Below are positions 3,278-36,731 of a DNA stretch of 38,883 nt, piece after piece. The stretch comes from a virus (taxonomy: Duplodnaviria; Heunggongvirae; Uroviricota; Caudoviricetes). The DNA is taken from the IMG/VR virus record IMGVR_UViG_2609459833_000016. The stretch is one strand, 5' to 3'. The notes beneath the pieces are model-generated. The model saw only the letters and a program-made list of their open reading frames with translations. It was not told the DNA's origin and searched no databases. The position numbers were made by a program, and so were the translations under genes. How positions within the stretch are numbered: position 1 is the stretch's first letter; each line of letters starts with the position of its first letter.

Positions 3278-4471
3278 ATGGCTGAAAAACGATTTCACGG
3301 TGTGCGCGTCACGGAGAATACCGACCTTGTGACGGCCATTAATGACGTTGATTCCAGCGTCATTGGTATTGTTGCCGTTGCAGATGATGCGGATACCGGG
3401 CAGTTCCCCCTTAACAAGCCAGTGCTGATTACCCGTGTATCTTCTGTTCTGGGGAAGGCCGGGAAAGCGGGCACGCTTTATAAGGCCCTTAAAGCGATAT
3501 CTGACCAGGTCAGTACACGGGTGATTGTCGTTCGCGTGGAGGCGGCAAAAGAGGGGGCTGAGAATAAAACACAGGATCAACTGGTCATTGGTACCACGGA
3601 AGAAGACGGAAGCTACAGCGGTATGCAGGCGCTTCTGGTTGCCGAACAGATGGAAGGTATTGGTTACCGACCCCGCATTCTTGCCGCTCCGGGCCTTGAA
3701 TCGGATGCTGTCACGGCTGCACTGGTGACTGTTGCCGGAAAAATGCGCGCATTTGCGTATTCCGGCTGCCCTGGCTGCACAAAACCGTCCGATGCTATTG
3801 CGTTTCGTAAAAAGATTTCCGGTCGCGAAATCATGCTTCTGTGGCCTGATTTCATTGCGTTCAACCCGGTGTCCGGTAAAAACGAAACCTTCCCGGCTGC
3901 GGCGTATGCGTGCGGTCTTCGTGCCCGACTCGACCATGAACAGGGCTGGCATCGATCCCTTTCTAACATGCCTGTGAAAAATGTTCTTGGGGTGTCAGCG
4001 TCTGTTTCCTGGTCACTTCAGGATGAAAACAGCGATGCCAACACGCTGAACAATAGCGAGGTGACCACTCTTATTCACCAGGGCGACGGCTCCTTCCGTT
4101 TCTGGGGTAACCGTACACCGGATACGTCGGAATACATTTTTGAGGTGAGCGCCCGCACGGCGCAACAACTGGCTGACTCTATTGCGGAGGGGCAGCTTCA
4201 GGTGGTGGATTCGCCTCTGACACCTTCCAATGCGAAAGATGCTGTAAGTGCCATCAAGGCGAAACTGGATTCCCTGGTCACGGCCGGAAAACTCATTGGG
4301 GCGGAATGCTGGTTCGATATTGTCGACAACAATACAACCAGTCTTCGTCAGGGCATTGTGCGTATTCGCTACAAATACACGCCCGTACCACCGATGGAAT
4401 GTATGGAACTCTATCAGACGTTTACCGACGAGTTCTTTGGCTCTGCTTTTGCATCTCTTGGAGGTAGCTAA
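3278..4471 (+). CDS. FI: Tail sheath protein FI
   Basis: About 397-aa ORF with P2 FI-like N-terminus (HGVRV...FPLNKPVLIT); ORF track start is 3266, and 3278 has the better SD. Confidence 0.9.
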   Translation: MAEKRFHGVRVTENTDLVTAINDVDSSVIGIVAVADDADTGQFPLNKPVLITRVSSVLGKAGKAGTLYKALKAISDQVSTRVIVVRVEAAKEGAENKTQDQLVIGTTEEDGSYSGMQALLVAEQMEGIGYRPRILAAPGLESDAVTAALVTVAGKMRAFAYSGCPGCTKPSDAIAFRKKISGREIMLLWPDFIAFNPVSGKNETFPAAAYACGLRARLDHEQGWHRSLSNMPVKNVLGVSASVSWSLQDENSDANTLNNSEVTTLIHQGDGSFRFWGNRTPDTSEYIFEVSARTAQQLADSIAEGQLQVVDSPLTPSNAKDAVSAIKAKLDSLVTAGKLIGAECWFDIVDNNTTSLRQGIVRIRYKYTPVPPMECMELYQTFTDEFFGSAFASLGGS

Positions 4472-5570: not shown

Positions 5571-8394
5571 TAATCTCCAGATACGTGTAGCCCTTACTGC
5601 GGTCGACCGTCTCACTCAACCCGTCAGGCGCGCCCGGGAAATGACCGGCGCGCTTTCCGAATCTCTTTCCTCCACGCAGAACGCTCTTAAGTCACTCCAG
5701 CGAAGCAGTGATGCGTTTTCCCGTGCCCGCCAGCAGGTGACCTCGACTGAAAACAGTCTGAACGAGGCGCGTGCGCGACTTCAGCGCCTCCAGGAGGCCC
5801 AGCGTACAGGCACAACACTAACGGAAAAACAGCAGGAAGCTATCCGCTCGATGACTGTGAAGATTGATCGCCTTAATACGGTTTATTCCCTCCACAAATC
5901 CCGACTTAGCGAAGCCAGTCGCGAACTGGAATCTCACGGTATACGGGCGGACGGAAGTAACCGTGCGGTCGAGAGGGCAATCAGGCGGACGCAGGAATAC
6001 AACGATCAGCTCGAACGCCAGCGGGGCCAGCTTGCACGCGTCACGCAGGCGCAGCAACGCTATGACCGTGTTCAGGATATTGCCGGTAAGCTCAGTCAGC
6101 GCGGTGCTGTTGCCATGGCGGCTGGCAGTGCCGGTCTGTATGCTGCCGGTCGCGCGGTTGCACCTGTTGTTGAAGAGCAACGGCAGGGTGCGCTCATTGC
6201 GGCACAGAGTGGCGGCAGCGCAGAAGACGGCCAGCGCTACAGCCGTATGATTCAGAGCATCCGTGCGTCAGGTGCGGCCACGGATATCGCGATGATTTCG
6301 GAAGCAGCAGCTGCGGCGCAAAGCACGCTTGGCGCACTGGGTACCGTAGGGACTGAAGAACTGGAAAGGGTGACACGGCAGGCAATCGATCTTGCTCAGG
6401 TCACCGGCGGTAATGTGGCTGAACAGGTTCAGGCTGCTGGCATTATGCTGAAAAACGGGCTTGCCGCAAATGCAGGTGAGGCCGTCGACCTGATGGCGGC
6501 AGGGATGCAGAAAATGTCTGCCGAAATGCGCGGCGAACTTCCTGAAATTCTGCATGAGTATTCCACGCATTTCCGCAATATGGGGCTATCCGGCTCTGAA
6601 ACCATGACGCTGCTTGTCAGCATGGCGCAGCAGGGGAAATTCGCCCTGGATAAAACCGGCGATGCTGTCAAAGAATTCAGTATTCGCGGCTCGGATATGT
6701 CCAAATCCAGCGTTGAAGCCTATGAGCTGATTGGCCTTAACGCTGAAAGAATGTCGTCAGCGATCGCCAGTGGCGGCGCGGCCGCGCGTGAAGCGATGCG
6801 TCGCACCGCGTCAGGTCTGTTACAGATTCAGGATCCTGCAGAACGGGCCAATGCGGCGATAGCGCTGTTCGGCACACCCATTGAAGATCTGGCTGTTGAC
6901 CAGATCCCGGATTTTCTCCGGTCGCTTGCAACGGTATCTGACCGTATGGGGCTGGTTCAGGGAACCGCCCGGCGAATGGGGGATGTTCTGCGTGACAACC
7001 TCGGCGGCGACACCGATCGTCTGTCCGGCATTTTCTCCGGTATTCGCAGTGATGTTGTGTCGCTGGTTACTGATGATATCCGCGAGCTTGTACAGGCTGT
7101 TGCTTCTGTGGGTGAACGCTTCAGGTCGTGGGTTCAGGAAAACCCGCAGCTTGTACGCACGCTGACCCTTACCGTGGGTGGCGTGCTTGCGGCCACAACG
7201 GCCATTGGTGCGTTGTCTGTCGGAGGTGGGTTACTGACGGGGATTTTTGCAAAACTTCAGCTTGGCTCTGCGCTTCTTGGTGGCGGGCTGTCCTCGCTTA
7301 CAAACGGTGTTGGTGGTCTTGCTCTTCGCCTGTCCGGCCTTCCGGCACTGTGGGGGATGGTCTCCGGTGCGGTTTCTGTGCTGGGCGGGGTGCTTTCCGG
7401 TCTTCTCAGTCCTGTTGGTCTCGTGATTGCTGCTCTTGCCGGTGGGGCGCTGCTCATATGGCGTCACTGGGAACAGGTTAAGGCGTTCATGCTCGGCACA
7501 TTCCGGTCGCTGTGGGCTGGCCTTGCGCCTGTTCGTGAAAGTATTGCTCAGTTTGCTCCGTTGTTTGATCTGGTGTCGGGTGCGGTGTCCACGGTGTTTG
7601 ACTGGTTTACCCGGTTACTCACGCCTGTTCAGGCCAGCAACGAATCTCTTGAACGGTGTACGTCTGCGGGAGAAAGCTTCGGTCGTGTACTTAGTGGGGC
7701 GATATCGCTTGCGCTTACGCCGCTGAAGGCGCTGATGGATGGACTTGCCTGGGTACTGGAAAAGCTTGGCGTGCTGCCTGATGAAGCTGAAAGGGCGCGC
7801 CGGAAACTGGAGGATGCACAGCGGACTTCGTTTCTTCAGGGCAAGCTCTCCCTGCTTCAGGGGGATGTTAATGCCATTATCTCGCCCGCTAAGCCAGTTG
7901 ATGGCAATGATAAAGGTAATAATGGTGGCAAGCCTTCTGTCATAAACGACGGCACCAGTGGCGTTCTTCGCAGGCTCAAAGGTATCGAGGGTAATACGTC
8001 GGGTATGCTTCAGGAAGCCCGCAAGCGTATCGGTCCTGGCGATATCGTGTTTAAAAATCTCCCCCGTGCGCTGGCTGTTCGCGGGCAGTGGAATGAACCG
8101 ACTGTTGCACCCGGGCTTCCGCTTATGCCAGCGTTTTCGCCTGTGTCTCCGGCGGTTTCCCCGGATTCTTCCCGTCCTGTGGAGGTTAAGCGGTGGGATC
8201 CGGTGTCCCCGACACCCCGGGGGCCTTCGCGCTCTCCTGAACCGCCGTCTGTGTACGGTGGTGATATTCATGTTCACCTTCACAACGTGGTTACGCAGAA
8301 CCCTCGCGACCTTGCCAGAATGGTGGGGGAGGCGGTACGGGAAGAAATTCGCAGACAATCCGGCGGTATGAACAGTTTCCGCGATCGTGATTAG
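5563..8394 (+). CDS. T: Tail tape measure protein T
   Basis: About 943-aa ORF with coiled-coil N-terminus and Gly/Ala/Leu-rich hydrophobic segments, followed by U. Confidence 0.9.
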   Translation: MSNNLQIRVALTAVDRLTQPVRRAREMTGALSESLSSTQNALKSLQRSSDAFSRARQQVTSTENSLNEARARLQRLQEAQRTGTTLTEKQQEAIRSMTVKIDRLNTVYSLHKSRLSEASRELESHGIRADGSNRAVERAIRRTQEYNDQLERQRGQLARVTQAQQRYDRVQDIAGKLSQRGAVAMAAGSAGLYAAGRAVAPVVEEQRQGALIAAQSGGSAEDGQRYSRMIQSIRASGAATDIAMISEAAAAAQSTLGALGTVGTEELERVTRQAIDLAQVTGGNVAEQVQAAGIMLKNGLAANAGEAVDLMAAGMQKMSAEMRGELPEILHEYSTHFRNMGLSGSETMTLLVSMAQQGKFALDKTGDAVKEFSIRGSDMSKSSVEAYELIGLNAERMSSAIASGGAAAREAMRRTASGLLQIQDPAERANAAIALFGTPIEDLAVDQIPDFLRSLATVSDRMGLVQGTARRMGDVLRDNLGGDTDRLSGIFSGIRSDVVSLVTDDIRELVQAVASVGERFRSWVQENPQLVRTLTLTVGGVLAATTAIGALSVGGGLLTGIFAKLQLGSALLGGGLSSLTNGVGGLALRLSGLPALWGMVSGAVSVLGGVLSGLLSPVGLVIAALAGGALLIWRHWEQVKAFMLGTFRSLWAGLAPVRESIAQFAPLFDLVSGAVSTVFDWFTRLLTPVQASNESLERCTSAGESFGRVLSGAISLALTPLKALMDGLAWVLEKLGVLPDEAERARRKLEDAQRTSFLQGKLSLLQGDVNAIISPAKPVDGNDKGNNGGKPSVINDGTSGVLRRLKGIEGNTSGMLQEARKRIGPGDIVFKNLPRALAVRGQWNEPTVAPGLPLMPAFSPVSPAVSPDSSRPVEVKRWDPVSPTPRGPSRSPEPPSVYGGDIHVHLHNVVTQNPRDLARMVGEAVREEIRRQSGGMNSFRDRD

Positions 8395-8399
8395 GAGTG

Positions 8400-8870
8400 A
8401 TGGTTATGATGATGATTTACGGCATGTTTGTTTTTCAGTTAAGCACACTGCCACACCAACAAATACAACAGTCCCGTAACTGGAGGCATGTAAAGAACGA
8501 GCGAATCAACCGCTCAGCCAGCTGGCAGTATATCGGCGCGGGTGACGATACCATCACGCTTTCGGATTTGCTCTACCCGGAAATTACGGGCGGTGAAGTC
8601 TCCCTGACCGCACTGACCAGCCAGGCTTACGTCGGGCGACCATGGCCGCTGATTGATGGGGTAGGGCAGATTTACGGGATGTATGTCATTACCGGGCTTA
8701 ACACCACCCGCTCTGAACTTGATCGCTATGGTCGGGCAAGAAAGATTGAGTTTACTGTCACTTTTGAGCGTGTGGATGAAGATCTGCGTGAACGTCTTCA
8801 GTCCTCGTCGCTTGGTGATCTTGCGAATAACGTCAAAGGTGCCCTGAATAATCTGTCCATTCCGGTTTAA
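8400..8870 (+). CDS. U: Tail protein U
   Basis: N-terminus MMM..GMFVFQLSTLP and central PWPLIDG...GMYVI match the P2 gpU pattern; ORF track start 8397 is a GTG. Confidence 0.85.
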   Translation: MVMMMIYGMFVFQLSTLPHQQIQQSRNWRHVKNERINRSASWQYIGAGDDTITLSDLLYPEITGGEVSLTALTSQAYVGRPWPLIDGVGQIYGMYVITGLNTTRSELDRYGRARKIEFTVTFERVDEDLRERLQSSSLGDLANNVKGALNNLSIPV

Positions 8871-27090: not shown

Positions 27091-27495
27091 TTACCTGCGT
27101 GATTGCCTGCTGGCGGCCGAATGCACATAGCTGACAATTGCCGCTTTTCGGTTAACGACGGCCAGCGTTCTTGCCAGTTCTTCGTTGAGTTTTCTGGTCT
27201 GTTTTTCGTGGTATGCCTGCATGATTTTTCCTACGGGAGTCAGTGGTTCAGGCTCTGATATGGCGCGACGAGGGCGCACGGCAACGATGAATGCGCTTCT
27301 GTCGGTGTTGGTTCTTGCAGTCAGGATATCGGTCATGACGGTATCTGTGCTGCGATCGGGGTTTGCGATCGTGATCTCCAGTTCGTCGCCTGGCTGTGGT
27401 CGAACACTGACGCCGCTCAGCGTCAGTGCCGGAATGCGTCCACTCATGATGGCGCTGAAATCATGGTGCTGGAGTACACAATGGAATCGTGTCAT
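27091..27495 (-). CDS. Hypothetical protein (134 aa), translationally coupled to gene A
   Basis: Start codon overlaps the A stop by 4 nt. Confidence 0.55.
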   Translation of the reverse strand: MTRFHCVLQHHDFSAIMSGRIPALTLSGVSVRPQPGDELEITIANPDRSTDTVMTDILTARTNTDRSAFIVAVRPRRAISEPEPLTPVGKIMQAYHEKQTRKLNEELARTLAVVNRKAAIVSYVHSAASRQSRR

Positions 27496-30011
27496 GGGTT
27501 CACCTCCGGTTGATCTGCTGCCACCAGGCTTCGTGATTTCTCATCCCAGTGCACAATCCGCCCGTCAGGCAGGCGAACGCGTGCACCTCTGTGTACGGAA
27601 AGTGCTGCGCCACTGTGTAGCTCCTCGCCCGTCGCGCTCAGTGCCGACTTGATTACGGTGGTGGTGACGTCAGTCAGCGGCAATGCTGTACGCACATGTA
27701 TGACGTCATCGGGCGTGGTGGGGCCGCCGGTTTTCACGGTTTTTGTGTCAGATGGCGCATCTTTCAGCTGCCTGGTGAGTTGTTTTCGCTTTGTGGGGGT
27801 CAGTGACCTTAACCACTCACCCAAATCACCTCCCGGGACGACCAGTTTTTGTTCTTTCCTGGTTTCCGGTGGTGGGTTTTTACCCTCTCCGGTGTCTGTT
27901 TTTTCATCATGGGGACAGTTATTGCCACGAGTCCAAGGTGCGGCGAAGCCGCCCCCAACGTCAAAATCCTCGTCCGTGCTGTTGTCGGCTTTCGCTTCTT
28001 TTCTGACCAGTTTCCACTCGTCCGGATGGGTGCAGATGGTGTAGCGCTCGCCGAGTCCGAGCGACGGGGCACAAATTCCGTAGATGCGCTGCGGGAATTC
28101 GCCGTAGTCGTTGGCCTCATCTGCGGTTTCGTATGCGGTGCGGATCAGGTACAGGTTGCGTGGAATGAGCACGCCGCCCTGACGGTTGATGTAGGTGGCA
28201 AAACACCCCACGTCAGCGGCGGCCAGAATGGCGTCAATGTCGTCATGGTCCAGGCGCTTCGGTGATGCGGGGTTACGCTCCATTTGTCCGGCAAGGCGGC
28301 GGAGTTCACGCCATACCTGGCGGGGCGGGATACCGAAGAACTGGAACTGCCGGATGCGGTGGAGACTCGCCCAGGCAATGGCGTTTTCCACGGTTTCCGC
28401 CATGGTTTTTCCCGATTCTTTATCGGCGTAAGGTTTGCCGGTTTTCGGGTCATTGTCGTGAAAGGTGCTGGCGTCCAGGTTCTTGCCAATATAGGTTGCG
28501 ATGTAGCTTGCCGGTGTGCCTTTTGCCGGGTCGATTTTTTCGCACTTGAAGCGCGGAGAAATATCATTCCCCAGTTCTGCGCGATCTGATTTGATTGCTG
28601 CGTCACGCATGATTTCAATGATGCGTTCTTCATTGTCCGGGGCGGTGAATACCAGCATGTGCCAGTGCGGTGTGCCGTCATGGTGTGGCTCAACGGTGCG
28701 CACCCCGTACCAGCTCAGGCCTTCTTTGTTGAGTTTTTTTCTTGCAGCTGCAAAGACGTCGTAAACCAGATAATCACTGGCATCGCGCACGGTGGCACCG
28801 TTGTATTTCGGGTTCAGGCTGCCGTCCTCGTTTACGCTGTGAAAGCGGGAAGGGCAGGTCACTGTCACGAAGAACGCGGAGTCACCACGCGATTCGGCGA
28901 CCTGTTCCATCCCTCTGACGCAGGCCATCATCTCGTTGCGGCGGTTGCGCGGATTCCCCAGCCCTGACCAGTACACGTCCTCCAGGCTCAGGCGTTCACC
29001 GTCTTCGTTTTCAATGTCCCAGCTTTTGAGAAAATCACGGGTGCGCTGGCGTTTCTCCCGGAATTCCTGGAGTGACTCATGGCTGATGTAGGGGGATGCC
29101 TTGCGCGATACTCTTCCGGCGGCACGCAGTAATTCCTCCCGCCAGAGATCAGCGAGGTGGCGCAGCTGGTTGTTCCACCAGGTGGCGCAGGTGATACGCA
29201 TTACCGCGCCCGGTACCAGTTCAGGGTCTGGTGCCGTGCGGCGGTCACGTCTGATCTCGAGTGACGGCCAGTATGGTGGGTTCACGCCCAGTTTTATTGC
29301 CATGCGCGCCAGCTGCTGGTAAGTCAGCAACCAGGTAAACAGGTTATCGTCGCCTTTTCCTGTCCGCTCAGTAACTTCATCACATATGCGTTCCAGTTCG
29401 GTGGAAAATGCCGCCGCCGTTAGTGTGGCAAGGCGCTGAATTTGATCACGGTTGAGTTGTGGCAGCATGAGTAATTCATCAAGGCGATGGCGTGCTGCGG
29501 TGGCTTTGAATGCCGTCGTGGCGAAGCATTCATTCACCTGTTCGATGCGTTTCAGGCGTGTGCGCAGTCCACGGCGAACGAAGTTATCGGCCACGTGAGT
29601 GTTGTTGTTTTTCACGCCTTCATTGCGGGCGCTTTGTTGTTTGCGGTTTAAACGCGCCAGATCACGAATGAGCACGTTGCCAAGAAACGAGGGCAGGGCG
29701 CGAAGTTCTGCCATGGCTTCCGATACCACCGTGGGCGGATTCTCGCGTTTGTGCTTCGCCAGTTTTTCCAGTCTGACCCGACGCTCTTCGTCGTGGTGAA
29801 GATGCGAATTAATTCGCTTGCCTTCGTCTGTGTTTGTCAGGAAGGAGACGGTTTCTTCATCCAGTCTGGCATCAATGCGAATGTCCTCGTTGATGTAGCT
29901 CTGAATGGCCTGGCGTAATGCGGTTGGTTGTGCTCTGCCGAACGTTTCAGGATCGATAACCGGTAGCGGTGCGTTCCACGGGTACGCCAGCTGTGCATTG
30001 CGGTCACTCAT
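27492..30011 (-). CDS. A: Replication initiation endonuclease A (rolling-circle HUH relaxase-type)
   Basis: 839-aa ORF with HUH motif region (VEPHHDGTPHWHMLVF) and downstream catalytic Tyr region. Confidence 0.9.
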   Translation of the reverse strand: MSDRNAQLAYPWNAPLPVIDPETFGRAQPTALRQAIQSYINEDIRIDARLDEETVSFLTNTDEGKRINSHLHHDEERRVRLEKLAKHKRENPPTVVSEAMAELRALPSFLGNVLIRDLARLNRKQQSARNEGVKNNNTHVADNFVRRGLRTRLKRIEQVNECFATTAFKATAARHRLDELLMLPQLNRDQIQRLATLTAAAFSTELERICDEVTERTGKGDDNLFTWLLTYQQLARMAIKLGVNPPYWPSLEIRRDRRTAPDPELVPGAVMRITCATWWNNQLRHLADLWREELLRAAGRVSRKASPYISHESLQEFREKRQRTRDFLKSWDIENEDGERLSLEDVYWSGLGNPRNRRNEMMACVRGMEQVAESRGDSAFFVTVTCPSRFHSVNEDGSLNPKYNGATVRDASDYLVYDVFAAARKKLNKEGLSWYGVRTVEPHHDGTPHWHMLVFTAPDNEERIIEIMRDAAIKSDRAELGNDISPRFKCEKIDPAKGTPASYIATYIGKNLDASTFHDNDPKTGKPYADKESGKTMAETVENAIAWASLHRIRQFQFFGIPPRQVWRELRRLAGQMERNPASPKRLDHDDIDAILAAADVGCFATYINRQGGVLIPRNLYLIRTAYETADEANDYGEFPQRIYGICAPSLGLGERYTICTHPDEWKLVRKEAKADNSTDEDFDVGGGFAAPWTRGNNCPHDEKTDTGEGKNPPPETRKEQKLVVPGGDLGEWLRSLTPTKRKQLTRQLKDAPSDTKTVKTGGPTTPDDVIHVRTALPLTDVTTTVIKSALSATGEELHSGAALSVHRGARVRLPDGRIVHWDEKSRSLVAADQPEVNP

Positions 30012-30424
30012 GCGTCGTACTCCCCGCCAGTGACCTCCTGAAACGCCGCGCGGTACAGCACGAGAAGGCGCTGGTATTCACCGATAAAGTCTTCTGCGGT
30101 GTATATGCCTTTCACGGCCACGCTGTGGGTTGTCATTTCCAGAACCAGTGCCATCTCTGACGATGACCAGCTGATGGCGGTACTGTCGGTGCCGTTGATG
30201 TGAAATAAACCAAAGCCATCACCGTCACCTTTCACGTCCACGCGGTAACGACCGTCAACGGTGAAGGAGAAATCCCCGTATGTGGTGATGCTGCGGGCGG
30301 CCTGTTTACAGGCGCGGCGGTAGTAGTCGTGCCAGTTGTTCAGGCGGGAAGCCAGCAGGGGATCCACCGCCCACATCCAGTTAAAAAAGTCCTGAATATC
30401 TGAAAGTCCCTTAACGCTCTTCAT
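30008..30424 (-). CDS. Hypothetical protein (138 aa), coupled to A
   Basis: ORF overlapping the A start by 4 nt; position matches P2 orf80-83. Confidence 0.55.
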   Translation of the reverse strand: MKSVKGLSDIQDFFNWMWAVDPLLASRLNNWHDYYRRACKQAARSITTYGDFSFTVDGRYRVDVKGDGDGFGLFHINGTDSTAISWSSSEMALVLEMTTHSVAVKGIYTAEDFIGEYQRLLVLYRAAFQEVTGGEYDA

Positions 30425-30492
30425 GAGAACCTCCGGTAACAGACGTGCGGAAGCCTCCCGCGCACGGGTGCGGGATGGCTTCAGGATGTGGT

Positions 30493-30714
30493 TTATCGGT
30501 GCTGGTTGATGAGGCTTTGCAGTTCTGCCAGATCTTCGGCGAGATAGCTGAAGACAGCAGCGCAGTAACGGTTTGATAGTGCGTGCGTGCGCTCATGCAG
30601 CATGTTGATATGCATGATTTGCGCGACGCGTGTTGCGCGGAAAAGTCTGCGGTTGATTTCAGTCTGGATGTGACGACGCTCAGCGCGGGCGCGCTGTTGC
30701 TTGCGGTTTGCCAT
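30493..30714 (-). CDS. Hypothetical basic protein (73 aa)
   Basis: ORF with Arg-rich N-terminus. Confidence 0.4.
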   Translation of the reverse strand: MANRKQQRARAERRHIQTEINRRLFRATRVAQIMHINMLHERTHALSNRYCAAVFSYLAEDLAELQSLINQHR

Positions 30715-31097
30715 GGTGTGGCCTCTTCGTTTGTGAATTTTGAAAACTCACCAACCAGAGGTGGAAAACTCAGGGTGGCGAGACGTACAGGGTTTCCACA
30801 ACCGGCAAACGAAGAAACCGGCCCGACCGAAGTCGGCCCTGTACGCCCCGCCATAATTCTGACGCGAAAAAGACGTGGCGATACAGTACGCACAAAAAAA
30901 CCGCTGGCGCGGCTGTGCGCTTCGTTTGTCAGCGGGGTGGAAATCCCGGCACCCGTTTTATGAGGTGCAGCGGAAATGTAACCCGACACGACGAGCGCTG
31001 GCAAGCGGTTTTTGTGTTGCGTGCTGATGTGGTTAGAATGTTGCGAATTAATATCACCTGGCAACTGGTGATTGTCTGCATACGCGGGGTGTTTCTG

Positions 31098-31562
31098 ATG
31101 AGTGATAAGCTCCCTTCTGATTACGAAATTCTTTTTGACCTGTGGTACAGCTACTGGCTTGAACACATGACAAGCCTTCTCCACCGTCGCGCTTCCTTGG
31201 TTCTGAGGATTAGCGCTTTCCTTGCGATTGTTGCCGCATTCATTTTTTGCGACAGCGCAACGTTTGTTTTCGCCAGTGTGGTGCTCTTTCTGGTGTGGCA
31301 GGTCATGGCTGCCTCTCTTTCTATCAGAGCTGAAAAGGCTGAATGGCAGGCGCTTAGCTATCAAAGACTGATTAGCCAGCGCCACGTGCTCACCCCGGAA
31401 TGCATGATTGCGCGCCTCTCCTTTGTTGAGGAAAGTGACAGCCCCGTGATGGAGTGCATGATCAACCTTGCCTGGAATAAAGCCTGTGAGACGGTTGGTA
31501 GCTCTTCGCGCAATCATGTTTCGATCTCCGGTCGGTTACTCAGTCGCCTGTGTGGCTTTTGA
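31098..31562 (+). CDS. Hypothetical 2-TM membrane protein (about 154 aa) on the strand opposite to the early operon
   Basis: Start at the internal ATG of ORF 30915..31562; hydrophobic helices ISAFLAIVAAFIFC and FVFASVVLFLVWQVMAASL; promoter-like TTGCGT/TAGAAT upstream. Confidence 0.5.
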   Translation: MSDKLPSDYEILFDLWYSYWLEHMTSLLHRRASLVLRISAFLAIVAAFIFCDSATFVFASVVLFLVWQVMAASLSIRAEKAEWQALSYQRLISQRHVLTPECMIARLSFVEESDSPVMECMINLAWNKACETVGSSSRNHVSISGRLLSRLCGF

Positions 31563-31886
31563 TTTGTGAAGCAGCTGCGCGACGGTTTCGCCGGCTGCCC
31601 GGTTTTCCGGGAATGACACTGGCATGTTCAGTTTGAGTGCCATTACGTACTCCGCCCGCGCGCCAGCTGAATCCACCCAGCCTTCCAGTAAGTAAATGGC
31701 ATCGGCACACATGAGCATCGGAATACAAATGCTCATGTACTGCTGCTGGCTTAATCCTTCCGGCAACGTGGCAGGGTTCAGCACAACGTGCCCGTCTGCC
31801 GCGAGCCTCATCGCCTCTGTGAAAAACGCCGTTCTGTTGTGATCTTTGTATCCGGTCATTGGACCGGCGATATAAATCACTGCCAT
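31536..31886 (-). CDS. DUF4406-like / nucleoside 2-deoxyribosyltransferase-like protein
   Basis: N-terminus AVIYIAGPMTG is the characteristic Rossmann-like start of this family. Confidence 0.55.
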   Translation of the reverse strand: MAVIYIAGPMTGYKDHNRTAFFTEAMRLAADGHVVLNPATLPEGLSQQQYMSICIPMLMCADAIYLLEGWVDSAGARAEYVMALKLNMPVSFPENRAAGETVAQLLHKSKATQATE

Positions 31887-32363: not shown

Positions 32364-33344
32364 TCACGTACTGGCAGGGGTAAACATCACGCTGTAAGTT
32401 GCATCTCCCGTTACAGGTCCGCAGTCCGGGCAGTAGCCACCGCCATGGTGACCGCAGGCGTCGCACTGTCTCAGGGTGGCGATAACCTCCGGTGCTGATT
32501 CCCGGGTTCTTGCGCCAACGCTTCGTGGTGCCTGTATGCAGTTCATCCGGTAACCCCGATAAATGCGTCGTGTTTCCGGTGTGTCGGAATTGGAGATGGT
32601 GATGCTGGTCATGCCGCCCGTTTCCTGTGAAAGGCGGTCAAGCGCTGCCCTCAGACGAACGTGCTCGTCTTCATCGAATGGTTTTCCGTAGGCGGTAAAA
32701 TTGTCCCGGCCACTGAATTGCAGGTAAGGGGGATCGCAGTACACGCAAAGCGTGTTGCCCATGCCGAACAGGTGACTGGCAGAGTTCAGCGTATCCTTAA
32801 AATCTGCGTGGATAAGCAGCGTTCGGGTGCTGTTTGCCTTGTCTGCAAATGCGCGGATTTCACGCTCAGGGAAGTAGGGCTTGCGGTAGCAGCCGAAAGG
32901 CACGTTAAAATCGCCTTTTCCGTTCACGCGGAACAAACCGTTAAAGCTGTGTCGGTTCAGGTACAAAAACATGGCGGCCAGTCGCAGTTCACGGCGGTCG
33001 CTTATTCCCGTTCTGCTGTTCAGGAAGGCATGATTCTCTGCGTTAAAGGTTTCGCGAATGATGAGATAGTCACCCCTGTTGTTGTGGTTCAGGAACAGGG
33101 TTTTCGCCTCGTCGATCAGGCTGTCGGAGTTGTCCCTGGCTTGCCGGTAGAAATTAATCAGCGCACCATTGGAATCACCCAGGATGTAACGCTTGTAACT
33201 GGTGTTCATGAATACCGATGCGCCACCCACAAACGGCTCAACCAGGCAGTCTGCTTCTGGCAGATGCGCCTTCAGTGTGTTCATGATGCGACTTTTTCCG
33301 CCCACCCATTTAAGCGGCGTGCCGGATAACAGTTCTTTGCTCAT
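32364..33344 (-). CDS. dam: DNA adenine methyltransferase (Dam family) with C-terminal Cys-rich zinc-ribbon-like extension
   Basis: Motif I LVEPFVGGASVF and motif IV VYCDPPY; C-terminal CDACGHHGGGYCPDCG. Confidence 0.85.
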   Translation of the reverse strand: MSKELLSGTPLKWVGGKSRIMNTLKAHLPEADCLVEPFVGGASVFMNTSYKRYILGDSNGALINFYRQARDNSDSLIDEAKTLFLNHNNRGDYLIIRETFNAENHAFLNSRTGISDRRELRLAAMFLYLNRHSFNGLFRVNGKGDFNVPFGCYRKPYFPEREIRAFADKANSTRTLLIHADFKDTLNSASHLFGMGNTLCVYCDPPYLQFSGRDNFTAYGKPFDEDEHVRLRAALDRLSQETGGMTSITISNSDTPETRRIYRGYRMNCIQAPRSVGARTRESAPEVIATLRQCDACGHHGGGYCPDCGPVTGDATYSVMFTPAST

Positions 33345-33577
33345 AACGCGGCCTCTTTGTTATAGGTTTCGTGCGTTAATAAATCCCATGACGCCCCGTT
33401 GTTTTTGCTCAGCAATCGCCAGCGAAAACCGATTCTTATTACCAGGTAGTCGTGGGGTTTTATGCGTGAAAAATTCCGCACGCCGTCGCGGAATAAACGC
33501 AGCGATGCGCGGGCTTTTCTTTCCACGTTCAGGGGGGGGCAGCAACACACATTCAGGATGGCGACCATGGCTTCACC

Positions 33578-36326: not shown

Positions 36327-36731
36327 ATGAAAAATGATATTGGCCAACGGTTGCGTGAGGAAAGGGAACGGCTGGGTCTTAGCCAAGTCGCTATGAGTGA
36401 TATTGGTGGGGTTAAAAAGTTAACCCAACTTAGATATGAGAAAGGGGATAGCTTTCCTGATGCGGCGTACTTATCAGCGTTGTCGCGTTTTGGCCTTGAT
36501 GTTCAGTATGTCGTGTTGGGAATTCATTCACCTGAAACTTATAACGATGATGAGCAGGAGTTGATCACACGTTTTCGGAGTGCCTCACTAGATGTGAAAA
36601 ACGCGGTGATTGGTGCTTTGAAAGGTGCAGTCACTGAAAAGGAGAGTCAGTCATCAGGGGGAGGGTTAAATATCTCTGGCGGGAATAACCGCATCGCAGG
36701 CCGTGACTATAACGAAACAAAGGGTAAGTGA
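36327..36731 (+). CDS. C: Immunity repressor (XRE-family HTH, C/CI-like)
   Basis: N-terminal HTH (LREERERLGLSQVAMSDIGGVKKLTQLRYEKG); divergent from the early operon and same strand as int. Confidence 0.75.
   Translation: MKNDIGQRLREERERLGLSQVAMSDIGGVKKLTQLRYEKGDSFPDAAYLSALSRFGLDVQYVVLGIHSPETYNDDEQELITRFRSASLDVKNAVIGALKGAVTEKESQSSGGGLNISGGNNRIAGRDYNETKGK

Follow-up and report, generated by a model that had tools for sequence, protein, structure and literature searches.

The early region of this prophage raises the question of what occupies the space between its last upstream early gene and the genes for derepression and replication, and whether the contents of this space belong together. The window, i.e., the whole stretch of 38,883 nucleotides that was analysed, carries the locus within an E. 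coli P88-like (P2-like) prophage, and E. coli NCTC9112 is 100% identical to it at this place; the identical prophage is carried by E. coli EC2 as well. The first-pass annotation had described a minus-strand early operon interrupted by a stretch with no credible open reading frame (30715-31097), followed by a plus-strand membrane-protein gene, and had presented the two as a single feature. All the elements that it described are present where it had placed them, and three details were corrected. The oddity of the early region consists of two independent features lying side by side, namely an RNA module at 30715-31004 and a gene at 31098-31562. We consider it highly probable that the former is a P4-type IsrK-C4 immunity module and the latter a separately acquired moron, encoding a protein with two transmembrane segments (2-TM).

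An IsrK-C4 module upstream of the derepression gene

On the minus strand, the stretch from 30968 to 30894 matches the isrK family of Rfam (RF01394) over the full length of the model (positions 1-77), with a score of 64.1 bits as compared to a gathering score of 50 (E 1e-11). It corresponds to an IsrK-family leader RNA, homologous to seqA of P4, with two hairpins at its 5' side. Upstream of it, a promoter motif scan found a sigma-70-like, promoter-like element, P(isrK), at 31004..30975 (minus strand), in which TTGCCA (31004..30999) and TACATT (30980..30975) are separated by an 18-nt spacer. This element agrees with the consensus, at the level of the motif only, in 9 positions out of 12, and the stretch is kept in 62 of 62 distinct relatives. 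The start predicted from it, at about 30968, coincides with position 1 of the Rfam model, and TACATT ends 7 nt before. At the 3' side, a putative intrinsic terminator is represented by a stem at 30914..30899 and a U-run extending to 30894. The score therefore assigns this RNA to RF01394, while the 5' promoter and the 3' rho-independent terminator are recognised as motifs only.

A second full-length match follows at 30858..30771 on the same strand, to the C4 family (RF01695, model positions 1-87; 82.1 bits as compared to a gathering score of 45, E 8e-15), and corresponds to an antisense RNA homologous to CI of P4 and c4 of P1/P7. Its recognition element b' (UCUUCGUUUG, 30815..30806) is located in the loop of the second hairpin, and a' (GUGGAAA, 30799..30793) in an internal loop. 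The target sequences are present on the minus strand in two copies, one of which lies within IsrK (a1, UUUCCAC, 30943..30937; b1, CAAACGAAG, 30928..30920) and the other within the 5' leader of the derepression gene, at 30770..30715 (a2, UUUCCAC, 30767..30761; b2, CAAACGAAGA, 30733..30724). The b2 copy overlaps the Shine-Dalgarno sequence GAGG (30725..30722), 7 nt ahead of the ATG at 30714, and the b-target sequence has no further occurrence within the 38.9-kb window.

The gene that begins at this ATG (30714..30493, minus strand), 56 nt from the 3' end of C4 and on the same strand, encodes a 73-aa derepression protein, an anti-repressor of the P4 epsilon type. The protein is a member of Pfam PF25738 (30.4 bits, gathering score 27), matches phrog_3688 (E 3e-41) and shares 32% identity with P4 epsilon over 50 aa (BLASTP, E 8e-9); its RefSeq name is also "derepression protein". 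Its presumed target would be a P2-type C repressor, and the prophage has a gene for a C-type repressor at 36327..36731. The same transcription unit continues downstream with a 138-aa ORF (30424..30008, minus strand; phrog_3237) and with the gene for the gpA replication endonuclease (30011..27492, minus strand; Pfam Phage_GPA, E 2e-108). Judging by analogy with the known systems, the derepression gene is the first gene under the control of the RNA module. Six further loci with a gene for the derepression protein were compared, and in each of them C4 follows isrK at the spacing seen here. The assignment of the second RNA to RF01695 is supported by its score, by its position upstream of the derepression gene in the same unit, and by its compensatory complementarity to both targets. 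The early operon is thus not interrupted at 30715-31004, since this stretch, on the same strand as the operon, would provide the promoter, the leader and the antisense-RNA control of the derepression and replication genes.

The description of the island as non-coding was right in that it holds no supported protein gene; it is not empty, however, because C4 and isrK are encoded on its minus strand. A structured RNA, which had been mentioned as a fallback, is in fact what the matches to two curated Rfam families indicate. Three long ORFs cross 30715-31097, one on the minus strand (30411..31517, 368 aa) and two on the plus strand (30583..30963, 126 aa; 30915..31562, 215 aa). They had rightly been considered artefacts, and none of them matches Pfam or NCBIfam. 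In the RefSeq records examined, the two RNAs are missing and spurious coding sequences (a "hypothetical protein" and an "ash family protein" pseudogene) are annotated in their place. That the island is protein-coding, either through the 62-aa plus-strand RefSeq CDS at 30775..30963 or through the minus-strand "ash family" frame, appears scarcely credible. Although both are annotated by RefSeq, and the frames are open in relatives (36 of 46 for the plus strand and about 41 of 46 for the minus strand), neither frame matches Pfam or NCBIfam, both sit exactly over the two full-length Rfam matches, and they are broken in 5 to 10 of the 46 relatives. The openness of the frames is uninformative at this island, because most relatives keep them open. 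Moreover, sequence variation among relatives clusters in six short blocks with base-pair-compensating changes, which a protein does not explain, and the old "cI protein" CDS of P4 likewise overlies the CI RNA.

An origin-like or repressor-binding DNA element, in place of an RNA locus, is barely conceivable. Such an element would be in keeping with a non-coding stretch that adjoins the replication gene and contains a few short direct repeats, e.g., the CTGGCAA-containing copies at 30998 and 31058. A repeat search, however, found no iteron arrays in the island, which speaks against the origin that had been suggested; the GC content is 0.56, and the island is therefore not AT-rich; and the detected repeats are none other than the a/b RNA elements. 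Origins of the P2 type are located within gene A.

Covariation and proposed working of the RNA module

Comparison of 30715-31097 across related prophages, which had been indicated earlier as a way to check the island, gave a clear result. The diversity of the relatives was drawn from IMG/VR; a search of genome contigs with the 73-aa protein gave 3 loci. In 46 distinct sequences, a' and b' co-vary with both copies of the target: they are paired with a1/b1 at 99.4% and with a2/b2 at 97.7%, with 182 and 180 double-sided changes, respectively. None of 500 shuffles matched the observed values, and slid partner columns paired at 27-52%. Among these sequences, 6 a' and 15 b' alleles occur in 26 combinations, with 0-1 mismatches over 16 positions for self pairs as compared to an average of 4.7 for non-self pairs. 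The b'/b2 duplex contains one mismatch in 17 of the 46 sequences. Folding of the leader as a whole gave a z-score of -3.9, and in this predicted fold a1/b1 are paired with a'/b' in cis.

From the analogy with P1/P7, P4, N15 and Gifsy-1, we infer how the IsrK-C4 module may work. P(isrK) would fire in the lysogen, and most transcripts would end at the IsrK terminator, the C4-like RNA being made from those that read through. Elements b' and a' of C4 would pair with b2 and a2 at the Shine-Dalgarno sequence, blocking translation of the derepression gene and probably limiting the expression of the 138-aa gene and of replication gene A as well. A further pairing of C4 would be with a1/b1, the identical copies carried by the IsrK leader. 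The consequence of this pairing might be enforced termination, as in P4; alternatively, as in Gifsy-1, the anti-repressor might be released through titration of C4 by free IsrK. The two systems assign opposite roles to the IsrK copy of the target: in P4, CI RNA pairs with seqA and seqC, leading to transcription termination, whereas IsrK provided in trans increases translation of the anti-repressor 140-fold (PMC4825925). The mode ascribed to C4 in the present prophage, be it translation block, termination or both, is borrowed from these analogies; the overlap of b2 with the Shine-Dalgarno sequence points to a block of translation, as in P1, and not to termination alone. The specificity of immunity would be set by the a and b sequences.

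Recognition of the module explains how the anti-repressor and replication genes of P88-like phages may be gated. Of 5,426 complete E. coli genomes, 1,237 matched part of a 1.5-kb query containing the module. The natural series of alleles, with its 26 a/b combinations and near-perfect three-way covariation, represents ready compensatory-mutation data for RNA-RNA recognition, and it may serve the study of phage hetero-immunity as well.

An antisense gene in a variable slot

The second feature, on the plus strand at 31098..31562, had been read as a gene for a protein of about 154 aa with two hydrophobic helices, and the TM check located these segments at about residues 33-51 and 56-76. The product, a predicted inner-membrane protein, matches phrog_6315 (E 1.5e-65). 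The start at 31098 is supported by the alignment of its homologues (151-167 aa), which runs from about residue 5 through to the C-terminus. The AlphaFold model consists of a long helical hairpin (pLDDT 84.6), with a helical domain of about 75 residues predicted to be cytoplasmic. The family is small, uncharacterised and only remotely SLATT-like: 21 representatives were found among 1.8 billion proteins, nearly all of 151-167 aa and with conserved motifs, sharing 25-38% identity at a constant length and having a PHROG of their own.

Of the promoter originally assigned to this gene (TTGCGT…TAGAAT), TAGAAT is present at 31034-31039, but TTGCGT (31017-31022) is only 11 nt away from it, and the -35 box had been mis-assigned; TTGTGT at 31012-31017, with a 16-nt spacer, is a better one. 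The candidate promoter thus spans 31012..31039 on the plus strand, as a motif-level match only, and was missed by the consensus scan because its -35 matches at 3 of 6 positions; transcription from it would be expected to begin near 31046. At the 3' end of the gene, a weak terminator-like hairpin with a T-rich tail (31542..31567, plus strand; motif only) falls inside the 3' end of the DUF4406 gene (31886..31536, minus strand), which is the last upstream early gene and encodes a nucleoside 2-deoxyribosyltransferase-like protein (Pfam E 1.5e-33). The two genes do converge, as had been reported, with an overlap of 27 nt (31536-31562) instead of 26. Signals proper to a moron are therefore a weak -35 at a site not listed by the scan, the sequence TTGTGT-16-TATAAT in a second, diverged allele of the gene (L019-type), and a terminator-like hairpin that is only weak.

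Two TM helices in a small protein recall class II holins. It is nonetheless highly improbable that this ORF is a holin or lysis accessory gene, or that it is spurious. The gene sits among the early genes, in the opposite orientation and well away from the late genes, and its product carries the predicted cytoplasmic domain; the conserved family of constant length, the confident fold and the PHROG argue against a chance ORF. In addition, the gene is absent from most P88-like relatives, phage P88 included, and thus it is not needed for lysis. For these reasons, it was not classified among the phage holins.

The 2-TM gene was found in 18 of 84 P88-like loci and is replaced in the remainder, where the slot is occupied by SPFH, SANT/Myb-like and further genes; eleven fillings of the slot were counted. 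Three 2-TM alleles with 36-38% mutual identity share this one slot in P88-like prophages, and the DUF4406 genes that flank them are clearly alignable over their whole length. DUF4406 always adjoins the 2-TM gene in P88-like prophages, and only there; a literature search on DUF4406 turned up nothing of use. Homologues of the 2-TM gene are present in an Erwinia P2-like prophage, in a Pseudomonas lambdoid prophage, and in lambdoid prophages of Citrobacter and other enterobacteria, in the latter directly beside a cI-type repressor. In intact prophages they are solitary and opposite to the neighbouring early genes; the exceptions are locus L098, in which one small ORF of the same orientation immediately precedes the homologue, and locus L101, which an IS element interrupts. 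Across the ten contexts examined, no partner gene of the family proved to be conserved. This patchy presence, together with the solitary and antisense position elsewhere, agrees with the moron character that had been proposed for the gene.

We also considered that the island and the 2-TM gene might form one unit, that is, a membrane toxin controlled by small RNAs, similar to type I or type III toxin-antitoxin systems. The two features are in fact neighbours, with putative promoters that diverge from a back-to-back position (7 bp between the -35 boxes), and the predicted product is a small membrane protein. Both RNAs, however, are encoded on the strand opposite to the 2-TM gene and have no overlap with its transcript, and the 2-TM mRNA contains neither a C4 b-target (with up to two mismatches) nor an exact a-target. 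Moreover, no isrK/C4 was found within 5-6 kb of the homologues in nine other loci, 66 of the 84 isrK/C4 loci lack the 2-TM gene, and the C4 elements co-vary with the leader of the derepression gene instead. A single unit of this kind is very improbable and largely refuted, and the same evidence contradicts the original presentation of the island and the gene as a single feature. Since the 2-TM gene occurs without IsrK/C4, and most IsrK/C4 loci are without the gene, it is an independent moron that was separately acquired in a variable slot.

The remote likeness to SLATT proteins emerged at the level of the family. A hand-made family consensus matched NCBIfam SLATT_4 with E 5e-6 (26.5 bits, the cut-off being 55), the same model matched 8 of 17 family members (E 2e-4 to 1e-2), and Pfam SLATT_4 gave E 0.11; all these scores are below the curated cut-offs and derive mostly from the hydrophobic helices, where composition inflates them. 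The "2TM" effector models of PADLOC matched the family with E 1e-4. The 154-aa protein of the window matches no SLATT model and has no significant match in PADLOC, Pfam or NCBIfam, its only Pfam match being DUF6239 at E 0.003, below threshold. Six of its top 11 fold matches in BFVD are SLATT proteins (E 0.01-0.2), and those in the PDB are generic helical hairpins.

The 2-TM protein may be anti-phage. We tentatively put forward, as a possibility, that it is an exclusion or abortive-infection effector expressed in the lysogen. In the lysogen, its own promoter would drive transcription of the gene, and the protein would reside in the inner membrane as a SLATT-like effector, excluding other phages or aborting their infection; on prophage induction, convergent early transcription would silence the gene. 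The family is a cheap, testable candidate for a single-gene function of this kind and, if inert, it represents one more uncharacterised moron. Somewhat more doubtful is a wider reading, in which the 154-aa protein founds a family of stand-alone SLATT-like effectors and the a/b elements of C4 act as a hetero-immunity barcode. If this were true, unrelated temperate phages (P2-like and lambdoid) would plant such effectors antisense in their early or immunity regions, with their production confined to the lysogen, and competing phages would be excluded, or their infection aborted, with no need of a dedicated sensor partner. The adjoining DUF4406 gene could conceivably supply a nucleotide signal in P88-like prophages, and the 6 x 15 a/b alleles would represent a large barcode among E. 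coli P2-like prophages.

Comparison with known exclusion and immunity systems

SLATT proteins (SMODS and SLOG-associating 2TM; CBASS/retron-type defence) resemble the 2-TM protein in that about 150 aa comprise a helix at the N-terminus, a tight hairpin of two TM segments and a C-terminal part that is helical; the 2-TM gene, however, is solitary, with no conserved cyclase (SMODS), SLOG or reverse-transcriptase partner, and its product stays below the SLATT cut-off. With rexB of lambda, sieB of P22 and old/tin of P2 it shares the character of a small membrane or accessory gene, variably present in the early or immunity region and with candidate signals of its own, although there is no sequence relationship. 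The slot between DUF4406 and P(isrK) differs from the P2 old/tin hotspot as far as the latter is described in the accessible text of PMC9122126, and it is not mentioned in the accessible text of the two P2 defence hotspot papers (PMC9122126 and PMC13586616).

As to the RNA module, our literature search found no paper specifically on IsrK-C4 in P88/Xuanwuvirus phages. The isrK - orf45 - anrP region of Gifsy-1 is similar in that an IsrK sRNA, which has a promoter of its own and ends at a leaky terminator (PMC4825925), is followed by a conserved non-coding stretch (STnc1160/"orf45") in the position of C4, to which IsrK is complementary, and then by an anti-repressor; the type of phage and the anti-repressor family are different. 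The immI region of P1/P7 (c4 - icd - ant) and the CA RNA of N15 share with the proposed working of the module a C4-family RNA that is processed from the transcript of the very anti-repressor that it represses, a'/b' elements that pair with the ribosome-binding region, and a hetero-immunity defined by alleles. In particular, the regions to which c4 binds by complementarity precede ant (bioRxiv 10.1101/2020.03.17.996009), and the gene 32 region of N15 matches the module at the DNA level. The anti-repressor of those phages is Ant/Icd, whereas here it belongs to the 73-aa epsilon family, and the classical P1-versus-P7 pair is opposed here to a far greater diversity (6 x 15 alleles).

Comparison with P4 reveals several differences. 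P4 is a satellite, while the element analysed here is a complete P2-like phage; the replication protein is the alpha primase in P4 and a P2-type gpA here; the distance from C4 to the ATG is about 245 nt in P4 as compared to 56 nt here; the 138-aa gene is unrelated to P4 orf151, no similarity being found between the proteins; and the downstream target here overlaps the Shine-Dalgarno sequence. The organisation, on the other hand, is the same. The immunity region of P4 has the order PLE, seqA, CI RNA, seqC, epsilon, ..., alpha, and on the P4 sequence isrK maps at 8692..8615, C4 at 8507..8420 and epsilon at 8175..7888, followed by the replication gene alpha. Both elements therefore contain the two Rfam families in equal order, then an epsilon-family derepression gene and then a replication gene, and in both the antisense RNA is complementary to one upstream and one downstream copy of the target. 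An "IsrK-C4 immunity system of P4", in which IsrK is equated with seqA and C4 with CI RNA, has already been described (PMC3632133). The IsrK-C4 module of the window is thus an already published immunity system, carried in this case by a P88-like prophage.

The RNA island and its place in the early region

The window is a P2-like (Peduoviridae) prophage from E. coli, of the P88 / Xuanwuvirus type. The 1.5 kb surrounding the noted region occurs at 100% identity in E. coli EC2, JNEC-KY204, NCTC9112 and further strains, and matches phage P88 and its relatives in part, at 85-88% identity. The early genes on the minus strand run in the order Dam methylase, two small ORFs, DUF4406 (31886..31536), the region in question, a 73-aa gene (30714..30493), a 138-aa gene and, downstream of it, the replication endonuclease gpA (839 aa). 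A 75-aa ORF inside this operon (33341..33568, minus strand; RefSeq 'ParE family toxin-like protein') overlaps the start of the Dam methylase gene, with no obvious antitoxin partner in the annotation. Positions 1-1003 hold a 182-aa ORF followed by tRNA-Gly(GCC), tRNA-Cys(GCA) and tRNA-Leu(TAA). The length of this ORF equals that of the CDP-alcohol phosphatidyltransferase gene adjoining the same tRNA trio in comparison locus L014; the trio also adjoins a Citrobacter lambdoid prophage carrying a homologue of the two-helix (2-TM) protein described below.

The first-pass annotation had described 30715-31097 as an island without a credible ORF, and the ORFs crossing it indeed have no family support. 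Its alternative suggestion of a structured RNA was borne out by two curated Rfam families, both matched at full length on the minus strand, which is that of the operon: C4 antisense RNA (30858..30771; 82.1 bits, gathering score 45) and IsrK (30968..30894; 64.1 bits, gathering score 50). A sigma-70-like motif, TTGCCA-18-TACATT (31004..30975, minus strand; P(isrK)), has its predicted start at position 1 of the IsrK model, and the 3' end of the IsrK match is a terminator-like hairpin with a U-run. We also observed a 17-nt inverted repeat (30892-30908 and 31001-31017, 88% complementary), whose nearly invariant arms are the 3' half of the IsrK terminator with its U-run and the sequence just upstream of P(isrK). 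It could be an anti-terminator in transcripts from an upstream early promoter, absent when transcription starts at P(isrK). Protein CDSs are annotated in RefSeq and GenBank exactly over the two RNAs: a 62-aa 'hypothetical protein' in the window (WP_024192890.1; 30775..30963, plus strand), an 'ash family protein' pseudogene in L004 (4371..4631, minus strand) and the old 'cI gene product' of satellite phage P4 (L097, 8168..8584). The RNAs themselves are annotated in none of the E. coli records examined; one phage record, LC710661, already has both.

The gene 56 nt 3' of C4, which encodes the 73-aa protein, belongs to the Pfam 'Derepression protein family', and its product is 32% identical to P4 epsilon (E 8e-9). 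P4 has the same order as the window, namely isrK, C4, epsilon and then a replication gene. All six further loci retrieved through the derepression protein carry isrK and C4 at equal spacing; the module was matched in 151 phage records, Stx phages, mEp460 and N15 among them, and 1,237 of 5,426 complete E. coli genomes match part of the 1.5-kb query. The island is a known regulatory system, IsrK-C4 RNA immunity over an epsilon-type anti-repressor, here in a P2-like prophage, and the replication gene A would, by position, be under the same control.

Recognition elements of C4, IsrK and the leader

The leader alignment (92 loci giving 62 distinct sequences, 46 of them distinct over the span from IsrK to the ATG) showed that the stems are almost invariant and that variation is limited to six short blocks, corresponding to two elements in three copies. 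C4 carries a' (GUGGAAA) in an internal loop and b' (UCUUCGUUUG) in a hairpin loop. The target copies in IsrK are a1 (UUUCCAC), in a hairpin loop, and b1 (CAAACGAAG), just 5' of the terminator; those in the mRNA leader of the derepression gene are a2 (UUUCCAC) and b2 (CAAACGAAGA), the latter overlapping the Shine-Dalgarno GAGG, 7 nt before the ATG. Pairing of a'/b' was found in 99.4% of cells with a1/b1 (182 double-sided changes) and in 97.7% with a2/b2 (180 double-sided changes); no shuffle out of 500 was as high, and sliding the partner columns brought pairing down to 27-52%. Six a' and 15 b' alleles form 26 combinations, with 0-1 mismatches per 16 positions between cognate elements as compared to a mean of 4.7 between non-cognate ones. 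The b-target sequence has no other occurrence in the window. The full leader folds with a z-score of -3.9, a1/b1 pairing with a'/b' in cis.

Two loci depart from this pattern. In the C4 of L093 (IMGVR_UViG_2582580934_000004) an insertion of 17 nt has duplicated the specificity hairpin, CCGGAUUCUUUGCUCUCCGG then UGUUCUUGUGUAGCCGG, so that two different b' alleles stand in tandem; this C4 may have dual specificity. L018 (IMGVR_UViG_3300029738_000139) is a recombinant module with window-type a1/b1 in IsrK and C4 and leader of another allele, so that its C4 mismatches the upstream copy (4 mismatches) and still matches the Shine-Dalgarno copy.

The 2-TM gene and its slot

The plus-strand ORF noted at 31098..31562 codes for a 154-aa protein whose hydrophobic segments lie at about residues 33-51 and 56-76. 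This protein matches phrog_6315 (E 1.5e-65), and the ORF is a real gene. The reported 3' overlap with DUF4406 is present and measures 27 nt, not 26. As to the promoter, TAGAAT (31034-31039) stands, whereas the claimed -35 element TTGCGT is only 11 nt off; TTGTGT (31012-31017), with a 16-nt spacer, is a better -35 for this putative promoter, and in a diverged allele TTGTGT-16-TATAAT precedes a GGAGG ribosome-binding site. The copies of a direct repeat, CTGGCAAGCGGTTTTTGT (30998-31015) and CTGGCAACTGGTGATTGT (31058-31075), 78% identical and 60 bp apart, flank the putative promoter and could be a protein-binding site or due to chance.

When 1.8 billion representative proteins were searched exhaustively with HMMER, only 21 relatives came up, nearly all of 151-167 aa and aligning from about residue 5 to the end, which supports the start at 31098 over the 174- or 215-aa forms of some RefSeq records. 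Common to the family are the two-TM hairpin and a motif towards either end, F.L.YSY.LE at the N terminus and IEE.DS...NPA.NRA at the C terminus; the AlphaFold model, a confident one (pLDDT 84.6), shows three short helices after a long helical hairpin. Weak SLATT and '2TM effector' signals recur: NCBIfam SLATT_4 matches 8 of 17 family members and also, at E 5e-6, a consensus made by hand (26.5 bits, below the cut-off of 55), PADLOC 2TM effector models match at E 1e-4, and SLATT proteins are six of the top 11 matches in a BFVD fold search (E 0.01-0.2). The window protein itself matched neither SLATT nor 2TM effector models, and for this reason we refrain from assigning it to SLATT.

Homologues were found in one P2-like prophage, from Erwinia, and in lambdoid prophages, one from Pseudomonas and several from Citrobacter and other enterobacteria; the lambdoid copies directly adjoin a cI-type repressor gene. 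Wherever the prophage context is intact, the gene stands alone and opposite to the neighbouring early genes, except in L098, where a single small ORF just upstream shares its orientation, and L101, where the locus is disrupted by an IS element. On this metagenomic contig (L101) an isrN Hfq-binding RNA (3864..4006, minus strand; 119.6 bits), probably unrelated, lies beside the IS element and the homologue. Neither isrK nor C4 was found within 5-6 kb of these homologues outside P88-like phages. Among 84 P88-like loci, the slot that separates P(isrK) from the preceding early gene is filled in 11 different ways, for example by SANT/Myb-like proteins and, in P88 itself, by an SPFH protein; homology between variants breaks at about 31018-31034, right at the border of the conserved promoter block. 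Only 18 of the 84 loci hold the 2-TM gene, as three alleles that are 36-38% identical to each other beside a DUF4406 gene clearly alignable over its whole length, which fits fast diversification or repeated replacement.

When the window allele was compared with that of L005-L007, the 170 bp before 31165-31400 and most of the 3' end were almost identical, and 31165-31400 (TM hairpin and next helix) differed at many positions; the allele is a mosaic. DUF4406 (nucleoside 2-deoxyribosyltransferase-like) converges on the 2-TM gene in all 18 P88-like loci, occurs without it in 10, and does not neighbour the homologues outside P88-like phages; the association could be linkage or a functional tie.

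Homologue contexts and the variable slot support the first-pass reading of a moron and do not support its coupling to the island, since homologues outside P88-like phages lack isrK/C4 nearby and most isrK slots lack the gene. These comparisons indicate INDEPENDENCE of the two features, the 2-TM gene and the RNA island. The gene is a moron in its own right, and the membrane protein that it encodes is uncharacterised and remotely SLATT-like.

Comparison with known systems

Among the by-products, two are the most useful: the series of alleles seen for the RNA recognition elements, and a single gene that can be tested as a candidate for prophage-encoded exclusion or abortive infection. By analogy with P1/P7, where c4 blocks the ribosome-binding site of ant (bioRxiv 10.1101/2020.03.17.996009), the C4-like RNA would block that of the derepression gene. 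It may also favour termination, as does P4 CI RNA with seqA and seqC (PMC4825925). The identical target copy in IsrK would compete for C4, and such competition would explain why IsrK in trans raised anti-repressor translation 140-fold in Gifsy-1 (PMC4825925).
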